Source of the DNA: a virus
DNA length: 64,000 bases
IMG/VR virus record: IMGVR_UViG_3300017605_000087
Coordinates: 23,173-87,172 of that record
Direction: 5' to 3' (one strand)
The notes beneath the pieces are model-generated. The model made no database searches. It was not told the DNA's origin and was given only the letters and a program-made list of their open reading frames with translations. Position numbers and translations under genes: made by a program. Each line of letters opens with the position of its first letter. Within the stretch, counting starts at the first letter, position 1. This document shows, one piece after another, positions 1 to 64,000 of the stretch.

Positions 1-3000
1 TTAGTTTTTACATTCATGTAAACACTATCAGTTCTATGCTCATTAAATGGTGCAGTAATTACTGCTAATTGCATTACATTACCATATTGACTAAATGTTA
101 CATCTACATTAGGATTACTATTAGCTTTATTAATATAATCTAATAAATAATCTATACTAGATACAAATTTATCTTTAGTTAATCTTTGAGTTATCCATCC
201 TTTTTTATTAGTAATATTTAAAGGTACTTGATTGTAATATTTTCTAATATTACTTTCTTTTTCTAACTCAAATTTAATAGCTTTATCAAGATTATTAGTA
301 GTAATACCTAAATCTTTATATAATTTAGTTAACTGTTTTGATATAATATCAGTATCTAAATTCCCTCCTTCATTAAGATATTTTACTAATGTATTCTTTT
401 CCTTTTCAATTCCGCTTATAACATCTGAAGTATAATATCCATTAGCTATTCTATTTTTTATCTTAGCTACAATATCATCTGCTTCTAATGTTTCATATAA
501 TGATTTTTTATTTCCGTAGTCAGGTTTTACTTCAAACTTATCTCTTAGTTTTTTATATAGTTGTACAACTACTGCTGGTCTTTGTTTATTAAATGAATGA
601 TACCAAGCATTAAGTAATTGTTCATTTTCTCTTACTCTATAAAATATATGATAATATGAAGGGTCTATATTTTCAGCCATAAATTTAATAGCATCTAACA
701 TCTCATACTTGTCATATTTTCCAAGCATGTTATTAGCTATTGTATTATAGGCTACATTAAAACTAATTGTTTCTCCTAATCCAGATAATGTATTAGTAGT
801 TGGTTTATATTTTAATAGTCCTTGTTCATCTACATACGATTGGTTTGCATCAGCTTTAGGTGTTGTAAGTATTAGTAATTTTATTTCAGCTAATACATTA
901 TCTTTAGAAGACATTTCCAATACGGCGGTATCATTCCAATTCTTTTCTAAATATTGTTCAGTAAATTGTTCTATTAACTCAGGACTTATATTGTACTCAT
1001 TAGTTATATACAACTTAGATTTCTCCCATATCTCACTATCATACTTACGTAAATTTTCTACATATCTATTGTATAAATCCGCTTGTTTTTCTCCTAGATT
1101 AGATATAAAATCGTTGTCATTAATTTTATTTCTAAGATGTTTTAATATAGCTATTCTTATTCCATCTATTCCCTTTCCTGAAACATTAGCATCTTCTAAT
1201 GCTTTTACATCTCCTAATGTAGATAAGAATAATCCTCCTGTAACATTTATTAAATGGTTCTCTTCTTCTCCCGTAAATCCTTCAGTTATAAAGAACTCAG
1301 AGGACTCTTGATCTTTCTTACTTTCTTTATCTCCAGTATTTCCTACTTCTTCATATAATTCTCCTTCTTCAGTTATACTATCGAACTCATCTCCAAAAGC
1401 ATCTCCAAGTTTTTTCTGAATATCAGTTTTATTACTGTGTGCTTTTAAATCAGTTATATTATTATTGAATTGTTCATTTAATATATCAGTTAATTCATCA
1501 AGTTTTGAACGTCCTGTTATTTGATTAAAAGTTTCTACAATTAATCTTTTCAATTTAGTCCATAAACTTTCAGGTTGATTATTTTCACCTTTAACTTTAA
1601 TAGAATCTAAGAAAGCACCAAATACGGGTTGAGTTAATCCATAAGTTACTATCTCTTCTACTTTACCTGAATCAACTAATTCTATTACTCTATTAATAAA
1701 AATAATAGCATTTCTTAATTCATTTTGTTGATTATTATTAAGTGCATCAGGTGTTGCATTAAATATATATAATGATAATCCTATTCTTTGTTCTTGTGTA
1801 ATTTTTCTTTTTCCTTTTTCTTCATCAAACTTAATAGTTGCCCAAAAACCTTTTAACTTAGTTTCAAATTGTTTTCTTTGTTCATCATTTTTAAGTCCAT
1901 TAGCTATTACTCCATGTACTAATTCATGGTTAAACGTACCTAACCTATTAGAACTTGACAAACCTCTTATTGCTTGTGTAAAATATACTTTATTTTCTTT
2001 ACGTGTATAAGCTCCTTTTACATTATTTCCTATTTCATCTTTAAAAGTAGGTCTTAATTTTTGTTCAATTTCTATATTTGCTTTTATAGCTTCTTCATAT
2101 AGAAAATTATATTTTTCAATTACTGGTAATAATGTATCAGCACTATCTTTTGTGATTAAACTTTTAGCAAATTTAACCATCTCATTATCTGTTTCTTCTC
2201 CTGCTACTCTTTCTTGTGATAATTCATCAGATGGAGTTTCAAATTCAGGTTTAATATTAATAATTAAAGGGAATCCTACAAAATCTTTACTTCTATTGTT
2301 AGTTAAATCATTTGTAAAATTACTTATTTTATTTCCCTGTCCATCTAATACTTTTCCAATGTTTGTTATAAGTCCACCAGTTTGTATAATATAGTGTTTA
2401 TAACTATCATATTCAATTCCACTTACAGTATCATAATAAGGGCCATCTAGTTTTAACCAGAAATAATCTACGTTTCTTTCCAACCCTGTAAATAATCTAC
2501 TCAAAAGTTTTCTTACTTCATCTTCTCCTTCTTTATTAGAGTTTACAACTTTTCCATCGTAATCAACATTGATACCACCACCTTCTGTAAAGAATATCTT
2601 TACAAGTTTTCCATCATGTTTAAATTGTACTCTATTATCTACTGTTTTTTCTTCCTCACCAAACTTAACTTTCTTTTTAGCTCCAACTAAAATTTTAAAT
2701 CTACCATCATCTTGTGTATCTTCATCAGGATAAGTTTCACTTACAATAGTAATACTTTCTATCTCATGTTTTAATTGAGTTAACTCAGCATTGTCTAATC
2801 TTATTCCTGATTGTTGTAGAATAGGTCTTAGTTGGAATATATAATCAGCTAATTTATCAGACAATTTTTTCTGATATGCTTTAGCTTCTTTTAATGTATC
2901 TGATAATTCTCCTTGCTCTAAACTTGGACTAATAGTTAATCCAATATTAGTTCTTATTAATGGAATACCAATTCTTTGTTCTCCAGATTTTAATACAACA

Positions 3001-6000
3001 TATTCTCTACCAGCGGCAAATTCTTTTCCTTTTAGATTAGTTACCTCAAACTCAGGTATTCCAGTTTTAATTGGAGCTAATGTTGTTTTATCATTTTTTC
3101 TAGTTGTAAATATATCAAAGTCGTAATCATCTTCATTATTACCTATGCTTTCATTTACAGCTTTATATATAAGTTTTCCTTTATCATCTCTTGATGTAAC
3201 AACTGCTCCACTAGTTAAATGTGCAATTTTAGCTTTAACAACTATACTCTTATCGGTTCCAATTACATTTCTTATTCTCCTTAGAGTTGTTAAATCTCTG
3301 TTCATTTTGTCATTCCAATTACCTAAGTTCTCAACAAGTTCTTGTTCATTAGGTACACCAGATTTAAAGAAATTATTACCAAAGAATAGTATATTAACTA
3401 AGTGGTCTAATCTTGTTGAAAAATTCTTTTTGACATCAACTTTAGCTTCACCTTTATTTTTTAATACATCTATTAATTCATCATTTTCTTTTAATCTATT
3501 TAACGCATTTAATCTTTCAACTCCTGTTAATGTTCTATATTCTAATATATCATTATATAAAGGATTAACAAAATCGGATATTGAATTGAATCTTTTAATA
3601 CGTTCTACTAGAGCTTCTTCACTTTCTAAATATTTAGAAGCGTTAGCATACGATATAGTATAGTTTATCCCAGGAACATTAATCATTAATGGAACATTGT
3701 TTGCATCATCAGCAAATTTGTTATATAATGGATTAGATTGATCTATTGATATAGATACTTCTGTTCCTACTTTTAATTTATTAAGAATATAATCTATAAC
3801 TCTAGCTCTTTCTTCATCATCAATAATTATATTTCCATCTACTCTTTTCTTATTAATTGGGTCTTTAATAGATTTCTTTTTAGTAGGATCATTTTTATAC
3901 ACAAAAGGAGATGTAAATACATTTAATAATCCTTTACCTCCTTGTTGTCTTATAGATTCACTAATAAAATCCGTATCAAATTGTATATTATCAGTTTCAT
4001 TATTTAACTCATCAAATAAAGATGTTCCGCCCAGTTCTTTTTGCTTTGCTTCCAGATAATTCTGGAAGTTTAAAAATTCATCTTTATCTAATCCTAATTC
4101 TATTATATCATTTTTTATAGTAGCTAGTTCTGTTTCAATAAATTTTAATGTTCCTTCTACATTATTAGCTGCTATTAATTGGTCTATTTTATCTTTCTTT
4201 AAATTTTCACTCATGCCAAATTCTTTAACATTGAATTTACCATCAGTATAATCTGTTTCGTCTGTCGTACTTTCATCAGCAACTTCTTTCTCTATCTCTC
4301 CAGTATCTTGAATTATTTTATTAATAGTTCCAGTTTTACCAGTAAATATTGCTGTTTCTCTTTCACTTAAAGGTTGTTTCTTAATTATTTTGTTAGCTAT
4401 CGAATTTAAGATTGATTCATCAGCTATATTATTATCAATATAATCTTTGAATTGTTCATCAGTGATAGGTTCAGTAGGTTTACTTCTTTCTATTTGTTCT
4501 TTCTGTACATTTAAACCTCTTTTCTTTTTCTGTATATCAATATCAGATTTAGATACTTTAAATCCTAAAGCATCTACTTCTTTTTGTAATTCGTCTAATT
4601 GAGTATTATAATCTCCTTCAACAGTAATAGCAGCTAATTTATCTTTAAGAACTTGTAATTGTTCTTTGTTAGCTTCTATAAATGCTTGTTTTAATTCTGT
4701 TTCTACTTTCTTAACTTCTTTAGGAGAAGTATCAACAGCTACTTTTTCTACTAGATACTCACTTGCTCCATCATAATAGATTTTATCTAGTGTATGTCCT
4801 ACTATATCAGGATTCAATCCTTTTAATAAAAGATCATTTATACTAGCTTTATCTAATATATCTGCTAGTTCATTAGCTCTCTTAGTATAAGATTCTATTA
4901 CACCATTTAATATTTTCTTTGTAGTAGGATTTTGATTAGATAATTCTTCTGTCATTAAATTAATAGATGTAGTAAGGGCATGTAGTTCTAGTATTCCATC
5001 TACATTTACTCCATCTTGTATTAATTTATTATAATGAATATCTTCTGCTTTTAATTTAGCAAGTTTTCCAGCTATTACATTAGATTTACTTTTAATAGTT
5101 TTTGAAGCAACATCATCTTTAATAGCTGAATTTAATATAACTTGTTTAATAGCTTGATTAACAGGAGTTGTAAATAATCTATTAGCATATTTATTATAGG
5201 CTGATTCTACATCTTTCCCTATTTCAAAAGCACGTTTAGAAAATATTACTGCTTCCTCTGGACTTAATTTATACTCATTCTCTAATTGTTTAATAAATTC
5301 AGGATGTGCAAAGTATTGTTTTAATAAATCTGAGTTACCATATTGAGCAGCATTAATCCACATATCAGTTAATGCTTTTTCTTTAATATCAGTGATTAAT
5401 TCATTTTTAGTTTTTTCAATTGTTGCTTCATCTCCTGTAATTTCTTCTCCAGTATAAGGATTAACTCCATTTTTTATTTGATTTAATAAACCAAATGCGC
5501 CCTGTAATTTAACAGTACGGCTTTTAATCTCTGTTATTCTTTCTCTATCAAAAGCATTTCTATCAACACCTTTGAATTTATCCATAGCCCATCCAGTAGC
5601 TCCAGCTACTTTAGTAAATACTGCTCCTCCTCCAACTCCCCAAAATGCTGCTTCCCAAGCGTGTGGGTCAGATATATATTTTTCTAATCTACTTCCAAAT
5701 GATGGGTCGTATGCTTTTTTTAATAGATATTTACCATAATTATTTCCTTCTTTATTTCCAGCATAGTTTATAAATTCTTCTGCTCCTTCACTTAATTCAA
5801 ATTTAAAACTACTTCTCATATCTTTGAAATATAGTCCAAGTTTACTAGGTAAACTTTTTTCAACTACATCTCCAAGTATTTCTTTTTGAGCTAAATTTAC
5901 TGTTGTTTTTTCTCCTAATCCACCAATTAGTTTATTTCTTCCTGCTTTAATTATACTTCCAGGTTTGAATCCAAATAATAAACGAGATTGTAAAACATCA

Positions 6001-40462: not shown

Positions 40463-40515
40463 TTTTTACGTGATTTACGTAAATTTGGTAGGTGTTTTTA
40501 CGTGTTTTACGTAAA
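40463..40515. repeat. Iteron-like 21 bp direct repeat, 2 copies
   Basis: TTTTTACGTGATTTACGTAAA (40463) and TTTTTACGTGTTTTACGTAAA (40495), period 32 bp; each ends in the palindrome TTTACGTAAA. Confidence 0.7.
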
Positions 40516-40581
40516 CCTAGTATTGATAATCAATCACTTACAAGGTTTTAGTGGACATATATATAATAGCGTTATTTTGTT

Positions 40582-40660
40582 TTTGAATTAAGTAGTAGAA
40601 CTCGATGGAGTTGCTGTGTGTACAGCAGGAGCCTTGGCTCCAATTATCAAACTATTCAAA
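40582..40660. other. Three contiguous hairpins enclosed by an outer stem
   Basis: AACTC-GATG-GAGTT, TGCTGT-GTGT-ACAGCA, GGAGC-CTTG-GCTCC; outer TTTGAAT/ATTCAAA. Confidence 0.6.
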
Positions 40661-40783
40661 TCAACATTTCACCAAATAACATCATAAACAATTCAAATCA
40701 ATCAAATTACTTAGATTACTCAAAACAATATCGAATTACATTTAATTACTCATTATTATATGGTGTATTTATTTGTTAATTTT

Positions 40784-40828
40784 CTTGTTTTTAACTATAC
40801 TATTACCTAAATTCGCATACGAATTTAG
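40784..40828 (+). promoter_or_regulatory. Degenerate sigma-A promoter overlapped by an inverted repeat
   Basis: CTTG-N20-TAAATTCG; CTAAATTCG-CATA-CGAATTTAG at 40807-40828. Confidence 0.4.
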
Positions 40829-40869
40829 TTATCCAATTATCAATTCATTTAATAACTAATTCAATAAGC

Positions 40870-41112
40870 ATGGATATAAGATACACAATAATCAATGAAA
40901 AGGGTGAACCAATACATCCTACAATAAGTATTAAGAATATTGGTGGTGTATTTATTGTACCATTAATAGGAACAGATGTATTATTTGATGATGATAGTAG
41001 ATTTCCTGAATACGTGAGAAATAAATTCTTTAGAGTATCTCATGTATTATTATATATGGGTTATCATCATACAGAAGCAACATCAATTAAACTAACTGAA
41101 ATAACATTATAA
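40870..41112 (+). CDS. Hypothetical protein
   Basis: 80 aa ORF, coupled to next gene. Confidence 0.6.
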   Translation: MDIRYTIINEKGEPIHPTISIKNIGGVFIVPLIGTDVLFDDDSRFPEYVRNKFFRVSHVLLYMGYHHTEATSIKLTEITL

Positions 41113-41113
41113 T

Positions 41114-41389
41114 ATGTGTTTAATTAAATCACTAGATGATCTAAATAAATATGGAGATTTATGTGATAAGATATATCACTTAATATCTGATGAAGATAGA
41201 CATACATTAATGTTTAATACAATGTTTGGAGATGTTAGGAAAAGTAGGTGTAATGATAATAATGAAGGACAAGAACGTTCATTAGGTGTAATATATGTTG
41301 GCTCATGGGCAGTTGAAGAAGCAGCAAAAGCATTTAAAGAAATGTATTTGAAGTATAGAGAGAAACATAAACTAACACACCCTATATAA
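41114..41389 (+). CDS. Hypothetical protein
   Basis: 91 aa ORF in packed operon. Confidence 0.6.
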   Translation: MCLIKSLDDLNKYGDLCDKIYHLISDEDRHTLMFNTMFGDVRKSRCNDNNEGQERSLGVIYVGSWAVEEAAKAFKEMYLKYREKHKLTHPI

Positions 41390-41418
41390 ATACTGTAACC
41401 AATTAAAACAACATAACA

Positions 41419-41961
41419 ATGAGAACATTCATGTATTTATTACTATTCACTATATGTGTATTAGTAATATCATTAAGAGTAAATGCACAACCCAATTTAA
41501 CAGTATTACAAATAGATACTGGTGTAGTAGCTTGTCATCAAGGTATGATAAGTATGACTATTGAAAATGATTCAATTGAAAATGTATCAGGTTTATTCAT
41601 GCTTGATTATTATAATTCCAATTGGATTAGTAGTAATGTCGATATATCTATTACAACACTAGATAGTATATTTGATATTACATTTAGTGGAATAGGTCAA
41701 ATAATGCACGATTATGATTCAATTAGAGTACAATATAGACATTATGCAAATAATGATACTATATTAATTGGATATTATGGTATACATTGTCCTAATCTGA
41801 GTATTGATGAATATTATACAAATGATATGAATATATCAAGTACAATATTATATAATATGTCAGGACAACCTATTAAAGATACTGATGCTTATAATATGTA
41901 TATCAAATTGATTACATATAGTAATGGTAAGCAGAGGTGGGAGAAAATATTAAAGCAGTAG
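41419..41961 (+). CDS. Secreted protein with Sec signal peptide and T9SS CTD-like tail
   Basis: MRTFMYLLLFTICVLVISLRVNA|Q signal; C-terminal LSIDE...LYNMSGQ...MYIK...KILKQ. Confidence 0.65.
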   Translation: MRTFMYLLLFTICVLVISLRVNAQPNLTVLQIDTGVVACHQGMISMTIENDSIENVSGLFMLDYYNSNWISSNVDISITTLDSIFDITFSGIGQIMHDYDSIRVQYRHYANNDTILIGYYGIHCPNLSIDEYYTNDMNISSTILYNMSGQPIKDTDAYNMYIKLITYSNGKQRWEKILKQ

Positions 41962-42048
41962 TTCAGAGTAGAGTGTGGTACTATAATAGCGAAAGCAATA
42001 CAGGTTAGGCCACACTTTATTATTAGTTTAACCAATAATACACATAAC

Positions 42049-42246
42049 ATGAAAAATAATGAAGAACAATCAAACATAGAAATATGTAGCAAATGTGGAC
42101 ATGAATTAATGGACTGCAATTGTACAATAGATGATAGTGATATGGATTATTATCCAGTACACATAATGAGTAGTAAAAGTATAATTATTGACAACAATAA
42201 CTTGTTAATGAATGACTACTTTAATGTACAACATCATTATCTATAA
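42049..42246 (+). CDS. Small Cys-containing hypothetical protein
   Basis: CSKCGH...CNC; conserved leader upstream. Confidence 0.55.
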   Translation: MKNNEEQSNIEICSKCGHELMDCNCTIDDSDMDYYPVHIMSSKSIIIDNNNLLMNDYFNVQHHYL

Positions 42247-42279
42247 TAATATAAGTTTAACCAATTAAAACACATAACA

Positions 42280-42525
42280 ATGAGTACAACAACCATTCAA
42301 ACAATCATACCTAAAGAGATAACTAACGATCTTGATGGTGGCGATATACAACATGCTTCATTTGGATATTATGATGGTATTGAATATGCCAAACAAAATA
42401 ATTTGAAACAAACCACAACATTTAGAGAAGTAGATGAGTTTACTCATTTTATAGTATGTTGTGGTGATGTAATGGTCAGGGTTAAATCAACAGATTATCC
42501 TGATATCCCACGAAGACAAATATAA
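42280..42525 (+). CDS. Hypothetical protein
   Basis: 81 aa; conserved leader upstream. Confidence 0.65.
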   Translation: MSTTTIQTIIPKEITNDLDGGDIQHASFGYYDGIEYAKQNNLKQTTTFREVDEFTHFIVCCGDVMVRVKSTDYPDIPRRQI

Positions 42526-42566
42526 TCCCGTTCTTACACACAGTTAAGTGGTTTAGTGATGTGATT

Positions 42567-42596
42567 GAGTGCTATGCCGTAAACATAGCACTCTTT
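42567..42596 (+). terminator. Intrinsic terminator-like hairpin
   Basis: GAGTGCTATG-CCGTAAA-CATAGCACTC-TTT. Confidence 0.65.
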
Positions 42597-42625
42597 CTTA
42601 AATTGAAACAAATAAAACAACATAT

Positions 42626-42922
42626 ATGAAATTTGTAGTTTACACAGTCGGAACAATTATCTGTTTAAATACCAACAAAAGATTAAATTCACAGGATAAA
42701 CCTGAAGGATTTAAAATGGAATTAGAAACAGATGAATTAACAGAAGCATTAGCTAAATTTCAGGAGTTACAAGATGCTAATCCACAAAATCCTGCACAGA
42801 ACCTATTAGATGAGAATAGTGATTGGGATAGCAAAGAGATGGATGAGGCAATAGAGAAAGCAAACTCTGAAAAGAAAGAAGAGGTTAAAGAAAAACCAGA
42901 GAGATCAACTGATGATAAGTAA
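42626..42922 (+). CDS. Acidic hypothetical protein
   Basis: 98 aa; A-rich leader. Confidence 0.6.
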   Translation: MKFVVYTVGTIICLNTNKRLNSQDKPEGFKMELETDELTEALAKFQELQDANPQNPAQNLLDENSDWDSKEMDEAIEKANSEKKEEVKEKPERSTDDK

Positions 42923-43361
42923 TGAACTTGAAGTTGAAATAGAAGATATTGCTGATGCCAGAGTATTTATATTAGCTGGTAATGCAATATTTACTCTAGT
43001 TGGTGAAAAGACTAGATTTACGTACAGAGTGAGAAAGAAAACTTTTAATCTTAGTAGTGAGTTCTATTATTATACAGTTGAAGTATTAACTGGAATGAAT
43101 AATAATACTGATTATACTAATATTGGAAAGATTATAGATATGGGTACAATATACAAATATACTTTAAGAAACAATGAGAAAGAAGCTCCATTAAGTGTTA
43201 GAGCATTTGCATGGTTCTTTAAAAGATTAATGTGTAAATTACCTGATATTAATAGAGTAAAATTCTATCATGTTGGAAGATGTGGTAGATGTGGAAGAAG
43301 ATTAACAACACCTGAATCAATACAAACTGGCATGGGAGAAATATGTGCTAGTAAAATGTAA
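42912..43361 (+). CDS. DUF6011-like zinc-finger protein
   Basis: FILAGNAIFT, RFTYRV and C-terminal CGRCGRRLTTPESIQTGMGEICA. Confidence 0.75.
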   Translation: MISNELEVEIEDIADARVFILAGNAIFTLVGEKTRFTYRVRKKTFNLSSEFYYYTVEVLTGMNNNTDYTNIGKIIDMGTIYKYTLRNNEKEAPLSVRAFAWFFKRLMCKLPDINRVKFYHVGRCGRCGRRLTTPESIQTGMGEICASKM

Positions 43362-43865
43362 TATGTCTGCTAGACATGTCAATGAACTATGGTGGGACAC
43401 AACACCTAGAGTAGTAATACTCTTATGAACAGCAGTTCTCGCAACCGGAACCGTTCTTTGTATATGAACCATGATATTAGCGAGGTTAGAAACTCACATG
43501 GACTGTCGATTCGTCAACAGAAGAGAAACAGAAGGACTAAATAGTTTATTTAAAATATACTTATACAATTGGCTCTCTATATTGGGATAGTGGGAGATAC
43601 GACTGCTCCACCAGAGGACAACCGTTAAGACAACCATTTAGAGTAGGAGATGATAATGTCATGGACTCCTGTGTAAGTTGCTTCACCGAATGAGTAGCTC
43701 AACTCTATTAGGTATATATGTACGATGGATATGAAGTAAATGAAGTCGTATGAAGATAGGACATATCGGTCGCACAGTTGCCTGAGAACCAACTGATGCC
43801 CATACCGATAAGTAGCGAACCTGTTATAGTGAGGTGATAAGCTATTCCTCACTTCCCTTCGGGGA
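43362..43865 (+). ncRNA. Putative large structured non-coding RNA (~500 nt), class unassigned
   Basis: No long plus-strand ORF in an otherwise packed operon; raised GC; more than 12 stems with multiway junctions; GTAA and TTCG tetraloops; ends TCCC-TTCG-GGGA. Confidence 0.7.
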
Positions 43866-43896
43866 TTAAAACGTAACCAATTAAATACATAACATA

Positions 43897-44022
43897 ATGG
43901 AAACTAGAATTAAAAAGAAAGTATCTTATAATAAAGTAGGTGTACCATTTAATGCTGGAGCTTACAGATGTATAGGAGGCACAGGAAGTGGGGTTATACC
44001 AATCTTTATTTATATGAATTAA
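43897..44022 (+). CDS. Small hypothetical protein (41 aa)
   Basis: METRIKKKVSYNKVGVPF...; conserved leader; stop 1 nt before next ATG. Confidence 0.6.
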   Translation: METRIKKKVSYNKVGVPFNAGAYRCIGGTGSGVIPIFIYMN

Positions 44023-44023
44023 T

Positions 44024-44332
44024 ATGGTAAAATGTATTTGCATAGATATTTCAGACAAGCCAGAGATTATACCTAATCACATGTGGCCTGTATTAAATAA
44101 AGAGTATCACATAACATGGATTTACTACCATACTCTACAAGGAGTTCAAGGAGTTGAACTCAAAGAGATAGCTATTGAAGGCTGTCCACCTTACGAATCA
44201 TATAGATTAACAAGATTTGCATTCACCAAAGAAGGAATAGAAGAATTAATGAAACTATTCAAACAATGTACTGATGCAAATGCTGTTGATATAGATGAAT
44301 TATTTAAAGAACTAGAAGTAATAGAAGTTTAA
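44024..44332 (+). CDS. Hypothetical phage protein
   Basis: 102 aa, MVKCICID...; coupled to upstream ORF. Confidence 0.65.
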   Translation: MVKCICIDISDKPEIIPNHMWPVLNKEYHITWIYYHTLQGVQGVELKEIAIEGCPPYESYRLTRFAFTKEGIEELMKLFKQCTDANAVDIDELFKELEVIEV

Positions 44333-44341
44333 CCGACAATT

Positions 44342-44488
44342 ATGAACAAACTAGCGCAAATGTCCAACCGAAGAGAAGAAATAGTAGTATTCTGTGCCAA
44401 AGCATTAATATTTGGTATAGTAACTACTGTTATAATAGCATTAGGAGCTGTAATGTTTATAGCATCTGCTATTTTAATCAACAATTAA
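44342..44488 (+). CDS. Small membrane protein (48 aa)
   Basis: Long hydrophobic stretch IVVFCAKALIFGIVTTVIIALGAVMFIASAIL. Confidence 0.55.
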   Translation: MNKLAQMSNRREEIVVFCAKALIFGIVTTVIIALGAVMFIASAILINN

Positions 44489-44490
44489 AT

Positions 44491-44596
44491 TACTGTTACT
44501 ATGAACCAGCGCAGAGACAGTTGGGCTGGGAATGGAGGATAACTCTTAATTGAGGACATAGGTATTACCCGTAATAAACGTATTTTATGACAAGTA
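44491..44596 (+). ncRNA. Putative small structured RNA (~105 nt)
   Basis: Intergenic nested stems TACTGTTA/TGACAAGTA, CTATG/CATAG, CCAGC/GCTGG, CTC/GAG. Confidence 0.4.
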
Positions 44597-44644
44597 GTAT
44601 ATACTCTATTTACTTTAAAGTTTAACCAATTAACACATAACAAA

Positions 44645-44755
44645 ATGAAAACAACAACCGACAAATGGATTAGGTTTACTGTTGTTCTAACATTTACATT
44701 ATTTTACCAATTATCATGTCATATAACTACTAGCGAAAGTGAGTCAATCAACTAG
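44645..44755 (+). CDS. Small membrane/lipoprotein-like peptide (36 aa)
   Basis: MKTTTDKWIRFTVVLTFTLFYQLSC...; conserved leader. Confidence 0.45.
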   Translation: MKTTTDKWIRFTVVLTFTLFYQLSCHITTSESESIN

Positions 44756-44841
44756 GACTATATCTCCGAATAATGGACACGGTTCATTAAAGAAATTGAA
44801 GGGGCATGATTATTACTCATAATTATATTATATTATTAGGT

Positions 44842-44879
44842 TAAATGGTGCATGGAAGGTAAAATACATGCACCATTTA
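44842..44879 (+). terminator. 13 bp hairpin directly before a conserved leader
   Basis: TAAATGGTGCATG-N12-CATGCACCATTTA. Confidence 0.55.
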
Positions 44880-44908
44880 TTAAAGTTTAACCAATTAAAA
44901 CACATAAC

Positions 44909-45142
44909 ATGTTAACAACCAATGGTACTTACAAAAGACTAACATTACATCAAAGAATATCTTTGAAAGGAATGATAGCAAGTCCTAAAGAAAGAGAAGT
45001 ATTGAATCATAAAACAAGAGAACAATTAGATAAAGAATTAGATGCTTTAAGAGCATATTGGTTATTATCTGATAATTTTGTTGAATCAGTAGAACTATTC
45101 TTTAGAAATGTAAAAATAGTTAGTAATCCAACACCTATGTAA
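44909..45142 (+). CDS. Hypothetical protein
   Basis: 77 aa; full-consensus leader. Confidence 0.65.
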   Translation: MLTTNGTYKRLTLHQRISLKGMIASPKEREVLNHKTREQLDKELDALRAYWLLSDNFVESVELFFRNVKIVSNPTPM

Positions 45143-45143
45143 T

Positions 45144-45548
45144 ATGAAATTAGTCGGTAAAATACTAATAATAGGAACAGTAGATAGTGGATTAATGACT
45201 ACTGAAGCAATTAAAACTGCAATGCTAGAACATAAAGCTAGTGTTGTCATAGTTGGAAAGGGAATGACAGATGCAGAAGTAGAAGCTGACGAATCTGCAA
45301 TGGAAAAGATAAGGGAATTAAAAGGTATTCCAGCATTAAATAGTATCTTAATGGAAGAAATAAATAGATTATCTTTCAAATTATCTAAATATCAACCACT
45401 AAAAGAAGTTGAATTAAAAGATATAGGTATTAAAGGAATAGCTGAGATTAAACCAACTATGGGAAAACGTCAACACAACAAGTTTCACACAAAGGTTAAC
45501 ACCAAACCTTATAAAACTGGTAAACAACACAATCATAGAAGAAGATAA
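45144..45548 (+). CDS. Hypothetical protein with basic tail
   Basis: 134 aa, coupled ORF. Confidence 0.6.
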   Translation: MKLVGKILIIGTVDSGLMTTEAIKTAMLEHKASVVIVGKGMTDAEVEADESAMEKIRELKGIPALNSILMEEINRLSFKLSKYQPLKEVELKDIGIKGIAEIKPTMGKRQHNKFHTKVNTKPYKTGKQHNHRRR

Positions 45549-45549
45549 C

Positions 45550-45804
45550 ATGAAGAAGAAACTATTAATGCTAATAGCAACGGTGTTTTATCATTTACAT
45601 AACTTTGTAGTTAGATTTGATAAGACACCGTATTTCATGCACCAAACCAGAAGATACATATTTGTTAGATGGTTAGGAAGAATAACTCTTAATACATCTA
45701 ATCAAGTATTAAATATAGCAACCACAACTAAACAAGACAAAATAAGAAGAAAACTCTATGAAGATAACTATAAATCAAATAATTCTTCTATTAGAAGTTT
45801 ATAG
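45550..45804 (+). CDS. Hypothetical protein
   Basis: 84 aa, coupled ORF. Confidence 0.5.
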   Translation: MKKKLLMLIATVFYHLHNFVVRFDKTPYFMHQTRRYIFVRWLGRITLNTSNQVLNIATTTKQDKIRRKLYEDNYKSNNSSIRSL

Positions 45805-45985
45805 AGGAACAGAAGCTCTACAATCAATGATTGGTACAAATAATGAAGATTATAAGAAATTAGTTAATCTTAAACTAATCAAAGGTAAAGAAAAAGGTGG
45901 AATAACCACTTGGAAAACTACAAAACAAGGAACAGCATTAGTTACTAATATAAAATATTTAGGATTAATGGTGATTAATATGTAA
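45758..45985 (+). CDS. Small winged-helix-like protein
   Basis: LVNLKLI...WKTTKQG resembles a wHTH wing (LTxxG). Confidence 0.45.
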   Translation: MKITINQIILLLEVYRGTEALQSMIGTNNEDYKKLVNLKLIKGKEKGGITTWKTTKQGTALVTNIKYLGLMVINM

Positions 45986-46002
45986 ACAATTAAAACAAAT
46001 AT

Positions 46003-46212
46003 ATGAACAATCAAAGAAAACCATTAATTGCTGCTAGACCTAATAAGACGGTCAACCACAACTACAATGAAGCTAAGATTGACAATCTTACAATCCAATT
46101 TGGAGTGAGTAAGACTTTCGCAAGATTAATGCTAAAGTACGAATGTAAAACTCCTGATGATTACCGAAAAATAAGGAATAAGAGGAAGAAGGAAAGAACA
46201 AAAAAGAAATAA
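46003..46212 (+). CDS. Small basic hypothetical protein
   Basis: 69 aa; degenerate leader. Confidence 0.55.
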   Translation: MNNQRKPLIAARPNKTVNHNYNEAKIDNLTIQFGVSKTFARLMLKYECKTPDDYRKIRNKRKKERTKKK

Positions 46213-46217
46213 CTAAT

Positions 46218-46430
46218 ATGAAAAAGAAACTTGTAACAATAGCTACGTATGACAAAGGTTCATGCTTAGTAGGAATGGGTTATTCAGGTGTAGAAGATGA
46301 TTCTCCAAGAGGATTTATTATATGTATTCCTGTACCACTTCCATGGATTATGGGAACATTTGTATTAGGAATTGGAGTTAAAACATTTAATAATAAAGAC
46401 AATTATGCCAAAAAGCCGAGTAAGACGTAA
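46218..46430 (+). CDS. Hypothetical protein
   Basis: 70 aa with hydrophobic segment. Confidence 0.5.
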   Translation: MKKKLVTIATYDKGSCLVGMGYSGVEDDSPRGFIICIPVPLPWIMGTFVLGIGVKTFNNKDNYAKKPSKT

Positions 46431-46608
46431 TAGAAAATTACCTAAGAGTAAATACGCCAATGCTAGACCAAAATCTACTAAAAGAGTTAAAGTAGAGATT
46501 CCAGAAGAAGAACAACGCACAATACCTGCTGTATATAGTAAGAAAGGTATTCTAATAAGACCAGAATATAAGAAAACACATAAAACAATAACACTTCACA
46601 CTTATTAA
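46405..46608 (+). CDS. Small highly basic protein
   Basis: MPKSRVRRNRKLPK...; ATG at 46405. Confidence 0.55.
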   Translation: MPKSRVRRNRKLPKSKYANARPKSTKRVKVEIPEEEQRTIPAVYSKKGILIRPEYKKTHKTITLHTY

Positions 46609-46609
46609 T

Positions 46610-46939
46610 ATGGAAAACACAGAAACAAGAGTAGATGTAAAAAGACCAATATATTTGGAAAACCTAATTGAAGCTAGTCTTAAACAAGATATTTCAGTTA
46701 GGAAAACTAATACTGAATTAGAGTTAGATTTTACAATAGCTAAAGCTGAGATGCAGAAGAAGATTGTTGAAGTAACTTTACAAATAGCTAATAAAGAAAC
46801 TGAATTAACTAGAAAAGAAAATAACATTCCATTATATCCTGATGATTGTTATGAAGTAGCTTGTGAAATAGCTCTATTAAATAACAAATTGAAGTATTTT
46901 GAGAAGTTACTAGATTCTAAATTCAATATCAATGCTTAA
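46610..46939 (+). CDS. Coiled-coil hypothetical protein
   Basis: 109 aa, coupled ORF. Confidence 0.6.
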   Translation: MENTETRVDVKRPIYLENLIEASLKQDISVRKTNTELELDFTIAKAEMQKKIVEVTLQIANKETELTRKENNIPLYPDDCYEVACEIALLNNKLKYFEKLLDSKFNINA

Positions 46940-47579
46940 AGAAGGAACATTAGTAGCTGTTAAAAATATGAAAACAGTTACACCAAATGGACAAGAACTA
47001 TTTGGAGAATGGGTATTTGCCAAAGTAGTAGCTTATGATGAAGAAAACAAACAGTATGCTTTAAACATAACAAAAGGTTTTAATGGAAGAGCTACTGGTG
47101 ATGTTAGAATAATTAAAGCTGCTGACCATGAAGTACATGATATAGTATTAGTCCATTGTTTTATCAGTATGGTAGTTCATAAAATAGCTCAATCCCATGA
47201 TAGAATAGCTGCACTCGTATCTGAAGCTGTAAAACATTATGCTGAATGGGTATTAGGAATGAATCCGAAAGAAAGAGTATGGTATCCAATAAGAAGTAGA
47301 AATGAATTAAAACAATTCATATTTACATTAGATACTTTAGCTAAAGCAAGAGCAACAAGGAGAGAAAGACAGATGGGGATGGTTATGGAATGGATGAAGG
47401 AACAAGAAGAAGCTAAAGATTTTGGTAATATGGTACATGAACTGTGGACTGATTATATTAATAAGGGTAAATTGGAAACAATAGAGATAAAGAAAGGAAC
47501 TTATAAAATTAATCAATGTGAGTGTGGCGCACCAATTTATAGAGCATCTCAGGACAAGAGGTTATTAATAACCCTATAA
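46932..47579 (+). CDS. Hypothetical protein
   Basis: 215 aa; C-terminal CECG. Confidence 0.6.
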   Translation: MLKEGTLVAVKNMKTVTPNGQELFGEWVFAKVVAYDEENKQYALNITKGFNGRATGDVRIIKAADHEVHDIVLVHCFISMVVHKIAQSHDRIAALVSEAVKHYAEWVLGMNPKERVWYPIRSRNELKQFIFTLDTLAKARATRRERQMGMVMEWMKEQEEAKDFGNMVHELWTDYINKGKLETIEIKKGTYKINQCECGAPIYRASQDKRLLITL

Positions 47580-52237: not shown

Positions 52238-54741
52238 TATTCGGTACTGACAAAGATTATAACTTCAATGGTGAAGATATAAAGACATCAACATTCGATA
52301 AGGTATTAGCACATTTAGATAATTTTATATCTAATAAAGTAGATTTTAAAGAAGATATTGTACTAGGTATCGACTTAGAAACTACTGGGCTAGACCCGTA
52401 TGTTAATGACCCACTATTAGTAGCCATTGGAGTTCTTGATCGACAATATGTATTCGATGTTACGAACAAAGAGAATGGCTACAAATTAGGAAAACTAATT
52501 GAGAAGTGGGATAGGATTATAAAGTGGTTAGGACAAAACTTGAAGTTTGATAACTGTATGTTGTTAGTAAATTTGTTGTGTAGATTACAGAAGATGTATG
52601 ATATAATGATAGCTGAACAACGTATATATCAAAATATGGATTACAGTTATGGTTTTGAATCAATTCTGTTAAGACATACAGGACAAGAATTTCAAGTAGA
52701 TAAAAAGACAAGATTAGAGTTTATTGGAGTAAATCCACAAACACACAGATTTACAGAAAAACAAATAAGATATTCAGCATTTGATATAAAGAACTTATTT
52801 CCTATATATGACAGTCAATGTAAGTTGATTGATAAATATAAGCTACATTTTCTGTTAAGTGAGAAGATGGAGTTTGGATTAATCAATGTATTAAGTGATG
52901 CTGAATTAGAAGGATTTTACTTGAATGAAGAACAATGGAGAGATAACATTGCAAAGAATGAAGAGTTAGAATTTATAACTCAAGTAAAATTAGATGAAGA
53001 AATCAGAAAATTAAGAGATAATTTATTAGAGGGTGAAGAACGTTTAAGTTTGGTTGGTGGAATGTATGACCAAATAAGACGTAAACATCCTAAAATAATA
53101 TCTACTGATTTATTTGGTGGAAAAGTAACCTTTGCAGATATGCAAGGAGGAAAAGGAAAGAAACGTAAGAAGGTAAAAATTAATACGAATAATCCTAATT
53201 ATAGTAGTCCAACACAGATGGTAAGATTGTTTGGTAATTTGAAACAATTAATGCCTACTAAGTATGGACGATACGAAATCCCTGTATTAAAACTTGTGAA
53301 AACTAAACAAGGTGGTACGAAGATTAAGATAATGAATAAAGAGATGGAGTTCTCAACTAAAAAAGAATACTTAGAACAGTATATCCTAAAGTTCTCGACT
53401 TCCGCTATGGTAGAGTTTGTTAAACAATTAATTGTTTATAGAAAAACGAATAAGAAGATAGACAGCTTTGGAGAGAACTTCATTTTGAATTATACTAATC
53501 CAGTAACAGGTAAAATACATACTATATTTAGACAATGTTCAGAAACTAAAGGTGATGATACAGAAGGTAAATCACCTATCAATGGAAGATTAAGCTCTGG
53601 AGATACAAGTAGAGGAAGACCTAATATGCAAAATATACCAAGAGAAAAGGAGTATAGGACTGCATTTTTTGTTGACCCTAAGTATAGTGTAATAACATGT
53701 GATTTAGGTGGAGCAGAAATTACCACAATGACAGCTAAAAGTCAAGATGAGAAACTTCTTAGATATGTTAATGAAGGTATATTTCACGATTATGCTGCAA
53801 CACATGGATGGAGAAGAATTTTCAATTTAAGAGCTAATACATTAAAAGAATTTACAGCTTTAATAGGACAATCTCATAAAGAAGAATATAGAGATTTAAT
53901 GGATAAAGTTGCAAACTTTGTAGTAGATAAAAAGAACAATCCTGATTTAAGACAAATTGGTAAAAACATGCACTTTGGTATATTCTATGGACTACATGAA
54001 AAAAAAGGTAGTGAAACATTGAATATTACTAGAGAAGAAGCTAAAGTTTATATTGATTTTATTAGACAAGCCTTTCCTAAAACCATAAAGAAACTACAAA
54101 GTTACGAATATTTTGCTATTGATAATGGTTATCTTATAATAGACGAAAGAACTAATGCAAGAATTTGGTTCCCAAGGATTGTAAGAAATATTAGACATAA
54201 TATTGAAGTAGCAAATAGAAACAAACAGAATCCTCATAAACATTTACATGAACAATATACTGAAATAGAGTTCATGGAGAAAATAGAAATAGGAGGACAA
54301 GCAAGAAATATACCTATTAGTGGTACACAAGCTAATATGCTTAAAGAGTCAATGGTTGAGATATATGATTATATTAAAAAACATGGATTAGATTGTAAGA
54401 TATTATTACAAGTTCACGATGAATTAGTAGTAAGATGTCCAAAGAATATGGATGGGCAATCTGATGAATGGAATGAAGACCCAAAATATGTATATTTCAA
54501 ATTAGATAACCCAATTGATATTAAGGATGATGATATGAGAGAGTATTATGGTTGGGATAAATATGACATAGATGTTAGTAAAGATGTAAGAAGTCTAACT
54601 ATTCACGATGGTAAACTATATGGTTTTCATGTAGATTTTCCAAAGTTTGTAGCATTAACAATGTGTGAAGTGGCAAATAGGTATTTAAACGGTTTTAAAA
54701 TGAGAGCAGATTATCATGTCGCAGATACATGGACAAAATAG
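52231..54741 (+). CDS. polA: Family A DNA polymerase with 3'-5' exonuclease
   Basis: DLETTGL, NLKFD, YSAFD exonuclease motifs; NGRLSS...PNMQNIP; CDLGGAEI; RQIGKNMHFGIFYG; QVHDEL. Confidence 0.93.
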   Translation: MVIFGTDKDYNFNGEDIKTSTFDKVLAHLDNFISNKVDFKEDIVLGIDLETTGLDPYVNDPLLVAIGVLDRQYVFDVTNKENGYKLGKLIEKWDRIIKWLGQNLKFDNCMLLVNLLCRLQKMYDIMIAEQRIYQNMDYSYGFESILLRHTGQEFQVDKKTRLEFIGVNPQTHRFTEKQIRYSAFDIKNLFPIYDSQCKLIDKYKLHFLLSEKMEFGLINVLSDAELEGFYLNEEQWRDNIAKNEELEFITQVKLDEEIRKLRDNLLEGEERLSLVGGMYDQIRRKHPKIISTDLFGGKVTFADMQGGKGKKRKKVKINTNNPNYSSPTQMVRLFGNLKQLMPTKYGRYEIPVLKLVKTKQGGTKIKIMNKEMEFSTKKEYLEQYILKFSTSAMVEFVKQLIVYRKTNKKIDSFGENFILNYTNPVTGKIHTIFRQCSETKGDDTEGKSPINGRLSSGDTSRGRPNMQNIPREKEYRTAFFVDPKYSVITCDLGGAEITTMTAKSQDEKLLRYVNEGIFHDYAATHGWRRIFNLRANTLKEFTALIGQSHKEEYRDLMDKVANFVVDKKNNPDLRQIGKNMHFGIFYGLHEKKGSETLNITREEAKVYIDFIRQAFPKTIKKLQSYEYFAIDNGYLIIDERTNARIWFPRIVRNIRHNIEVANRNKQNPHKHLHEQYTEIEFMEKIEIGGQARNIPISGTQANMLKESMVEIYDYIKKHGLDCKILLQVHDELVVRCPKNMDGQSDEWNEDPKYVYFKLDNPIDIKDDDMREYYGWDKYDIDVSKDVRSLTIHDGKLYGFHVDFPKFVALTMCEVANRYLNGFKMRADYHVADTWTK

Positions 54742-63552: not shown

Positions 63553-64000
63553 TAAAGAATCGTTTGATTATTTATTTACAATTAATATTCCTAACTATAT
63601 TAGAGAAGTAACATTATCTGAACAACAAAATGCTCAGTATTATGAGTGGAAAGATGGTCAAATAAAAGGTAAAAAACCAGTTCCTAGAGAATGTATTATA
63701 CAAAAATTCAAACAGGAAAGAAAAGTTTTACCAGATCACTTAAAAGAACCATTCAAATTAGCTGTTATAGATAAACAATCTAATGTAGTTGGATTAGTAG
63801 ATACTGCTGATGATATTAAAAATGAAGTAAAAACACATCCTGTTTATAAAGGATGCAGACTTCGTTTATATAATACAGCAACAGGTGTCTATGTACTTGC
63901 AAATCCTACTAAAGTAGGGCAACCTAATAAATCTATTATTAACGGACAAAGAATTAGTAGTGGAGTTGTTAGAGAATTTGCTAAAGGTAAAATATTTGAA
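63545..64000 (+). CDS. Partial CDS, possible RusA-like resolvase N-terminus
   Basis: ATG 63545; IPNYIREVTLS and ANPTKVGQP...INGQ segments; open at window edge. Confidence 0.45.
   Translation, partial: MLDKESFDYLFTINIPNYIREVTLSEQQNAQYYEWKDGQIKGKKPVPRECIIQKFKQERKVLPDHLKEPFKLAVIDKQSNVVGLVDTADDIKNEVKTHPVYKGCRLRLYNTATGVYVLANPTKVGQPNKSIINGQRISSGVVREFAKGKIFE

Follow-up and report, generated by a model that had tools for sequence, protein, structure and literature searches.

The ROOL (RF03087) and GOLLD (RF01998) RNAs are 500 to 800 nucleotides long and often lie near tRNA genes, and the tRNA cluster of phage T4 encodes small stable RNAs called species 1 and 2 (rnaC/rnaD). Anticodon loops are the usual site of group I introns in bacterial tRNA genes. 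The profile of the twister, pistol and hatchet ribozymes combines small size with pseudoknots, an invariant unpaired block and a patchy spread in phages. Many new ribozymes and riboswitches have come from orphan structured RNAs in which covarying pseudoknots hold a block of invariant bases. We describe here a small RNA module found in a stretch of 64,000 nucleotides of viral DNA (hereafter, the window). The window comprises bases 23173-87172 of IMGVR_UViG_3300017605_000087, a viral record of 87,172 bp that is classed as having direct terminal repeats, and positions refer to the window unless another record is named.

A conserved module in a gene-free gap

A first-pass annotation of the window had read a gene-free gap beginning at position 43362 as a single ornate RNA of ~500 nucleotides, of the ROOL or GOLLD kind. 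The uncatalogued structured noncoding RNA that it proposed on the plus strand is supported, and is much shorter: only positions 43559-43678 (120 nucleotides) are common to other fetched sequences. A large ornate RNA that is called from stems alone can mask a much smaller real element. Sequence comparison suggests that the 120-nucleotide module is very probably a real, selected and structured RNA. It is absent from Rfam 15, and hence uncatalogued there.

Table 1. Features of the module and of the gap around it, in window positions
Feature	Position	Strand	Sequence	Remarks
Conserved small RNA module, type 1 form	43559-43678 (120 nt)	+		Model R1, 108.5 bits, E 1e-26, full model length
Outer stem Po, 5' strand	43559-43567	+	ACTTATACA	Pairs with 43670-43678, TGTGTAAGT
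Linker between Po and Pa		+	ATTGGCT	
Closing stem Pa, 5' strand	43575-43582	+	CTCTATAT	Pairs with 43636-43643, ATTTAGAG; 7 of 8 positions paired
Inner hairpin Pb	43584-43590	+	GGGATAG	7 bp; pairs with 43603-43609, CTGCTCC; conserved A.C at fourth position
Pseudoknot strand x, Pb loop	43593-43596	+	GGAG	Pairs with x' CTCC, 43666-43669, beyond Pa
Open strand	43610-43635	+	ACCAGAGGACAACC-G-TTAAGA-C-AACC	Nearly invariant; isolated covarying pair 43624:43631
Hairpin Pc	43650-43662	+	ATGA-TAATG-TCAT	In 3' tail; then invariant GG, 43663-64
5' spacer	43362-43558	+		Lineage-specific hairpins; z -1.51, 17 of 200 shuffles as good
3' spacer	43679-43896	+		Stable hairpins at 43764-43866; z -2.63, 3 of 200 shuffles as good

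The fold of the module, which nests four helices and ties the Pb loop to the 3' tail (Table 1), is defined by sequence comparison, not by thermodynamics, and is described by a covariance model, R1, that was built from nine sequences of the type 1 form. The 87-kb genome, including the window, has no strong R1 match other than that listed in Table 1, and the module is single-copy there. A nearly invariant, A/C-rich strand of 27 nucleotides runs between Pb and Pa and is wrapped by the knot. The window copy has the features that define the R1 family, namely Pa, Pb, Pc and the sequence ACCAGAGGACAACC-R-TTWAGA-Y-AACC with R and Y paired, and also has the pseudoknot between the Pb loop and the 3' tail (GGAG/CTCC). 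Its outer stem consists of nine pairs, one of them T.G. In the eight other type 1 sequences the Po complements, which were picked by eye, are of different sequence and form 6 to 11 bp; Po was also assigned by eye in L210 and L224 (relatives are designated by locus number), and no control was run on this stem.

Covariation is strong for the fold inside Po. In the nine type 1 sequences, 87.2% of cells are paired, and 16 of the 20 pairs change on both sides. Shuffles give 67.5%, with none of 500 reaching the observed value, and slid partners give 27-45%. Among 43 sequences, in an alignment that was fitted to the structure of the model and leans towards it, 85.3% of cells are paired, compared with 57.4% in shuffles (again 0 of 500 as high) and 24-44% when slid, and all but one of the 20 pairs change on both sides. 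In the latter set all eight pairs of Pa change on both sides, with 86.7% of cells paired. About 20 different, fully complementary Pa stem sequences were found by a script before any model existed, and these make the same point independently. Six of the seven Pb pairs also change on both sides among the 43 sequences, and the A.C mismatch of Pb is present in seven of the nine type 1 rows. Every one of the four Pc pairs changes on both sides in the type 1 sequences, where 100% of cells are paired. The isolated pair 43624:43631 is A-U in 24 sequences and G-C in 19, and is unpaired in none of the 43. None of these counts comes from a MAFFT alignment of the 36 domains, because it put the 5' stems of different subtypes in the wrong places.

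The pseudoknot between the Pb loop and the 3' tail has moderate comparative support across the family. Relatives carry other complementary pairs of strands in the same places (GGCTT/AAGCT, TACTACA/TGTAGTA, AGCG/CGCT, GTAAT/ATTAC, GAGGG/CCCTT and CCCGT/ACGGG), and such duplexes are stronger within sequences than across them, with 62 of 20,000 permutations as good. Two observations indicate that the plus-strand transcript is what folds: G.U cells outnumber A.C cells (48 versus 20, with 14 of those A.C cells at one position), and the module is co-oriented with tRNA or tmRNA genes at every locus where both were mapped.

The pairings that the first-pass annotation had placed in the conserved middle of the gap (CTCT/AGAG, TGGGAG/CTCCA, AGGAG/CTCCT and TAGAGT/ACTCTA) are not those backed by covariation, and its two three-way junctions are lost on comparison with relatives. 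The stems that it listed are readable in the sequence and most occur in the minimum-free-energy fold, but in total the folding is no better than that of shuffled sequences. This comparison, which the annotation itself had named as a possible refutation, goes against the whole stretch: the plus strand folds at -130.2 kcal/mol, versus -122.9 +/- 6.6 in dinucleotide shuffles (z -1.11, 12 of 100 shuffles as good). The minus strand gives z -0.71. Another check that it had proposed, covariation among homologues, yields strong evidence for the 120-nucleotide module; no homologues of the rest of the gap were found in the fetched loci. When folding was scanned in sliding segments of 120 nucleotides, only 43750-43869 stood out (z -3.3 on the plus strand and -2.3 on the minus strand). 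This segment is a cluster of hairpins, including a long arm, AGTGAGG/CCTCACT and TCCC-TTCG-GGGA, that is not conserved in any fetched sequence. It accounts for the favorable score of the 3' third of the gap, and may be the 3' end or the terminator of a transcript.

The gap is, as the first-pass annotation had noted, free of open reading frames (ORFs) and richer in G+C than its flanks, which an ORF scan under three genetic codes and a G+C profile bear out. It spans 43362-43896 (535 nucleotides) between plus-strand ORFs at 42912..43361 and 43897..44022, and contains no plus-strand ORF longer than 39 amino acids and no minus-strand ORF longer than 75. A coding explanation was rejected, since no long frame appears under table 11, with TAG read as Q, or with TGA read as W. 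G+C content is 0.37-0.43 in the gap, compared with about 0.27-0.31 in the flanks and 0.30 in the genome. Promoter-like sites number 8, where 7.6 are expected, and no terminator-like site was scored on the plus strand of the gap.

These properties bear on the proposal of a single RNA, large, ornate and of a new class, that would take up the whole gap and have the module as its core. The gap is the longest ORF-free stretch on the plus strand, its elevated G+C content and the 3' third that beats shuffles (z -2.63) fit such an RNA, and no plus-strand terminator-like site divides it. However, the folding energy of the whole stretch is unremarkable, as given above, and nothing beyond 43559-43678 is common to any relative. 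Several relatives also hold the module within ~100 nucleotides of flanking ORFs or tRNAs, and neither ROOL nor GOLLD matched the window at gathering scores, or 43200-44050 at E values up to 10. A single large RNA is the least likely of the explanations considered here, and the gap outside the module is lineage-specific spacer. Neither GenBank phages nor the fetched loci contain a match to the 5' spacer, and no relatives of the 3' spacer were found among the fetched loci.

Searches of the entire window with Rfam 15 at gathering scores matched no family, so the uncatalogued status claimed for the RNA stands. Over 43200-44050, with E values up to 10, only three hits were reported, all at chance level: DUF805b, adapt33_3 and PhotoRC-I. 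The DUF805b match is weak (43914-43942, 14.8 bits versus a gathering score of 35.6) and lies inside the ORF of 41 amino acids that comes after the gap. Beside the module in L116 there is a weak match of a similar kind. The annotation had also seen no tRNA, tmRNA, RNase P or intron, and indeed none was matched by Rfam. The Rfam tRNA model in particular has no hit in 43200-44050 at E values up to 10. ARAGORN found no tRNA or tmRNA in the window, and still none when its threshold was relaxed; the calls that it made at the lowest threshold all bear introns and are implausible.

The terminase, portal and capsid proteins of the genome match crAss-type PHROGs. With the capsid protein as query, tblastn matched 110 phage records at up to 38% identity, which belong to crAss-like phages and to phages of Bacteroides and Flavobacterium. 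The whole genome has 30% G+C, and neither tRNA nor tmRNA genes were found in it. The protein encoded directly upstream of the gap (149 amino acids, 42912-43361) corresponds to phrog_20259, of unknown function. Its tblastn relatives, at 31-42% identity, occur only in phages of Caulobacter, Agrobacterium, Rhizobium, Sinorhizobium and Brevundimonas and in four uncultured or unclassified viral records; many are jumbo phages, and no crAss-like phage is among them. Neither this protein nor the large terminase, used as queries, revealed close relatives of the phage in viral contigs, and a downstream ORF of 102 amino acids had no tblastn match. Two other regions lack ORFs of at least 40 amino acids on either strand: 44665-44908 (244 nucleotides), which among such stretches of the genome is exceeded in length only by the terminal region, and 63553-64000, the last 448 nucleotides of the genome.

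Relatives and carrier RNAs

When the gap, and a 7-kb query covering 40500-47500, were compared by blastn with 50,697 phage records, the sole match was to the crAss-like phage cr126_1. It covers 43599-43665 of the window (66-67 nucleotides) at 85% identity. Further relatives were collected with pattern scans that derive from this matching segment. A scan of viral sequences yielded 24 loci, of which 22 were judged true by eye, and a metagenome scan yielded 75, of which 41 were so judged; the 2 and 34 that were dropped were judged by eye to match the pattern only by chance, within DNA that is coding or of low complexity. L031 and L224 were recruited through separate anchors. Once duplicates were collapsed, 43 distinct sequences remained, which with L224 make 44 distinct members. 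R1 gives exactly one hit in each of 43 sources, and in a negative control of 62 chance-hit loci it produced one hit only, at 24.4 bits. Local blastn detected nothing else in the gap that matches any fetched locus, and the flanks of 11 close-type relatives have no blocks in common with each other or with the window.

The family is, by its distribution in these collections, phage-restricted, and confined to uncultured and apparently lytic phages. Among 185,579 prokaryotic species genomes, the exact core occurs in only two small contigs of metagenome-assembled genomes (MAGs), and R1 had no hit in 150 further genomes from the phylum of one of these core-bearing MAGs. The module is single-copy in four of five phage records or MAGs that were searched whole. 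In the fifth, the phage of L117, a second R1 hit (28.9 bits) was rejected, as by eye it resembles AT-rich coding DNA and lacks the core. The 85% identity of the module links crAss-like phages with no other detectable DNA similarity, and the capsid protein of the window phage is at most 38% identical to those of the crAss-like phages matched. In crAss-like phages, which are a dominant virus group of the human gut, the module would be among the few noncoding elements with comparative support.

Full-text literature searches on phage tRNA-loop introns, crAss noncoding RNA and phage RNA motifs returned no description of the module, and matches to core words were primers and coincidences. One such match, a 9-base word in a published hammerhead construct (PMC11300833), is a coincidence. 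The accessible portion of PMC7886860 mentions no noncoding RNA. PMC10690425, according to the part available, catalogues about 10,000 candidate viral RNAs, and the module may be among these.

The module occurs in several genomic settings. In cr126_1, the R1 match (53734-53853) occupies an unannotated hole of 120 nucleotides in a tRNA array, flanked by one tRNA-Lys at 53662-53735 and another at 53856-53929. L031 similarly has a free-standing module that fills a slot between tRNAs, and in the window, L117, L119 and L129 it stands alone between ORFs. Free-standing copies carry their own outer stem. Relatives hold the module at distances from 7 to ~450 nucleotides from neighboring plus-strand ORFs or tRNAs. 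The ORFs near the module belong to no recurrent family, and the most frequent family is present at 4 of 40 loci.

Other copies reside within larger structured RNAs. In L116 (10332-10489), the Rfam tRNA model scores 38.5 bits and aligns to the acceptor, D and T arms, with an insert of 89 nucleotides in the anticodon loop; ARAGORN calls no tRNA here. Nine further tRNA-shaped genes with the module were recognized by eye (L127, L152, L164, L165, L184, L172, L174, L188 and L208). We read these genes as probable carriers rather than as interrupted tRNAs, because no working anticodon arm can be derived from them. In L120, from an uncultured phage, a long hairpin that is inserted in a complete group I intron (3293-3718, 59.1 bits versus a gathering score of 50) has the module, stems included, at its tip. 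An initial Rfam hit at this locus had suggested that the module is itself a group I intron core; this identification was discarded when a wider search showed that the intron is complete and that the module is inserted in it. A GIY-YIG-like ORF (2538..3335) lies just upstream of the L120 intron. The intron itself apparently splits a protein gene, whose remainder begins at about 3700. A tmRNA adjoins the module in L130, as detected by Rfam, and in L125, by eye only. In L113 (about 4029-4084, minus strand) and L155, a truncated tRNA-like minihelix with acceptor and T arms was observed directly 3' of the module, and gives a partial hit to positions 10-63 of the Rfam tRNA model.

This pattern could also mean that the module is maintained through its mobility and not through a benefit to the phage. 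The module might be a selfish or DNA-level element, either a small mobile insert at hairpin tips or a site recognized by a protein or in single-stranded DNA. Its patchy spread in unrelated phages with near-identical cores would fit, as would its insertion at helix tips, both in a tRNA-shaped gene and in a mobile intron with a GIY-YIG-like ORF, and the direct repeat within the core (GACAACC ... GAYAACC). However, the excess of G.U over A.C on the plus strand and an orientation that follows RNA genes point to a folded transcript, and no transposase or endonuclease recurs nearby. A mobile element is also hard to reconcile with the single copies in four of the five records searched whole, the second hit in the fifth being weak and by eye spurious. 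Moreover, the tRNA-shaped carriers vary yet keep their tRNA shape, which suggests long co-evolution over recent insertion. We regard an explanation by mobility as very unlikely.

Possible functions

The explanation that we favor, at somewhat less than an even chance, is that these sequences represent a portable binding module that acts in trans and is displayed on stable carrier RNAs. The module would be an autonomous folding unit at the helix tip of its carrier, which could be its own stem between tRNA genes, a tRNA-shaped RNA whose anticodon-arm position it takes, or a peripheral hairpin of a group I intron. Because the same unit sits on all three, it is presumably self-contained; the presence of one module on three different carrier RNAs is unusual. 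Where tRNAs flank the module, host enzymes that process tRNA ends would release a discrete RNA of ~120 nucleotides. The invariant strand, held by the knot, would provide the working surface, and would bind something that is conserved across many bacteria. Taken by itself, the proposition that the module binds in trans is plausible but tentative. Its likeliest target would be a part of the translation or tRNA-processing machinery, a guess prompted by the company of tRNAs, tmRNA and tRNA-shaped carriers, or else a small ligand. The module might also serve as a scaffold, a sponge or a decoy, as the first-pass annotation had proposed.

Several points weigh against this explanation or against the evidence for it. 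The guess at the translation machinery derives from genomic company only, and the phage of the window has no tRNA gene, so release linked to tRNA processing could not apply to the window copy. The pattern scans fix 19 bases of the core, and both the census and the apparent invariance of the core are biased accordingly. Anchors outside the core recovered few true members (3, 6 and 2), all of which keep the exact core except L224, with two substitutions. The lean of the 43-row alignment has been mentioned. The family is rare, with cr126_1 as its sole holder among GenBank phages searched by blastn and no cultured phage represented. Finally, the conserved middle of the gap, where the module lies, does not exceed shuffles in its folding, with z-scores of +0.5 to +0.8. 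Such values would be expected of a knotted RNA in which a long strand stays open, yet they lend no independent support.

The knot could instead act in cis. The module has a closing helix and an inner hairpin whose loop pairs beyond that helix, a topology that recalls exonuclease-resistant viral RNAs, and it might block or direct host ribonucleases and thereby stabilize neighboring RNA. This appears quite unlikely, since the position of the module relative to genes is not fixed and since nothing lies downstream to be protected in the tRNA-shaped carriers and the intron hairpin. The coremin element, as described in the accessible part of PMC6546385, has a hairpin with a YGAD loop, a conserved spacer of 10 nucleotides and a second hairpin. 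An element of this type was considered and rejected, because a comparison by eye showed a YGAD loop on neither Pb nor Pc and no spacer of that kind in the module.

Alternatively, the module could be a new small self-cleaving or otherwise catalytic RNA, which would excise itself from, or trim, polycistronic tRNA and early transcripts. Its size of about 70-120 nucleotides, its pseudoknots and nearly invariant unpaired block, and its patchy, phage-only distribution are in keeping with such a role and fit the twister, pistol and hatchet profile given above, and it sits in transcripts that need processing. On the other hand, Rfam ribozyme models have no match in the gap of the window or in L120 (3470-3720) at E values up to 10, and no conserved candidate cleavage site was identified. 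Self-cleavage also has no obvious use inside a group I intron hairpin or a conserved tRNA-shaped carrier. We consider self-cleavage unlikely.

The favored portable binding module has a bolder extension, which is possible but doubtful. The 70-nucleotide heart of the module might constitute a new functional class of RNA, either catalytic or a high-affinity aptamer for a molecule that is universally conserved in bacteria, which lytic phages would have grafted onto any stable carrier, whether a bare stem, a tRNA-shaped body or an intron hairpin. If so, the engineered "aptamer in a tRNA scaffold" would have an equivalent in nature. Candidate targets for such an aptamer include a component of the ribosome or of tRNA processing, and a small signaling or immune nucleotide. 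At 70-120 nucleotides, the module is a short, synthesizable object for direct tests.

Comparison with described RNA systems

Like the module, ROOL and GOLLD RNAs are linked to phages or prophages, and their function is unknown. They are distinguished by a conserved unit of several hundred nucleotides, compared with 120 here.

Group I introns resemble the module in their locations: one relative (L120) lies in an intron hairpin, and others lie in tRNA anticodon loops. However, the loop-to-tail pairing of the module breaks the group I helix order. The group I intron model RF00028 has no match in 43200-44050 at E values up to 10, and the same search found the intron of L120. The gap also joins no exons, in that the upstream ORF aligns with its full-length relatives up to residue 149, its last, and tRNA halves were found on neither side of the gap.

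In 10 relatives, a tRNA-like body of acceptor, D and T arms carries a foreign domain in place of the anticodon arm, which is reminiscent of tmRNA and of YrlA-type Y RNAs. The module differs in that it has no tmRNA or YrlA match in Rfam, and the window copy lacks a tRNA-like body.

The small RNAs of phage T4, which we compare by description only and which presumably are freed by tRNA-processing enzymes, differ in another way. The window phage has no tRNA genes, and tRNA-shaped RNAs and an intron also serve as carriers of the module. Like the T4 RNAs, however, the module in cr126_1 and L031 occupies a "tRNA slot", and both are small structured RNAs of unknown function among phage tRNA genes.

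Small pseudoknotted ribozymes and riboswitch aptamers offer a further comparison. Although no such family matches the module and no constant gene lies downstream of it, it resembles these RNAs in its size, its pseudoknots, its covarying helices around an invariant unpaired block and its patchy, phage-biased spread.

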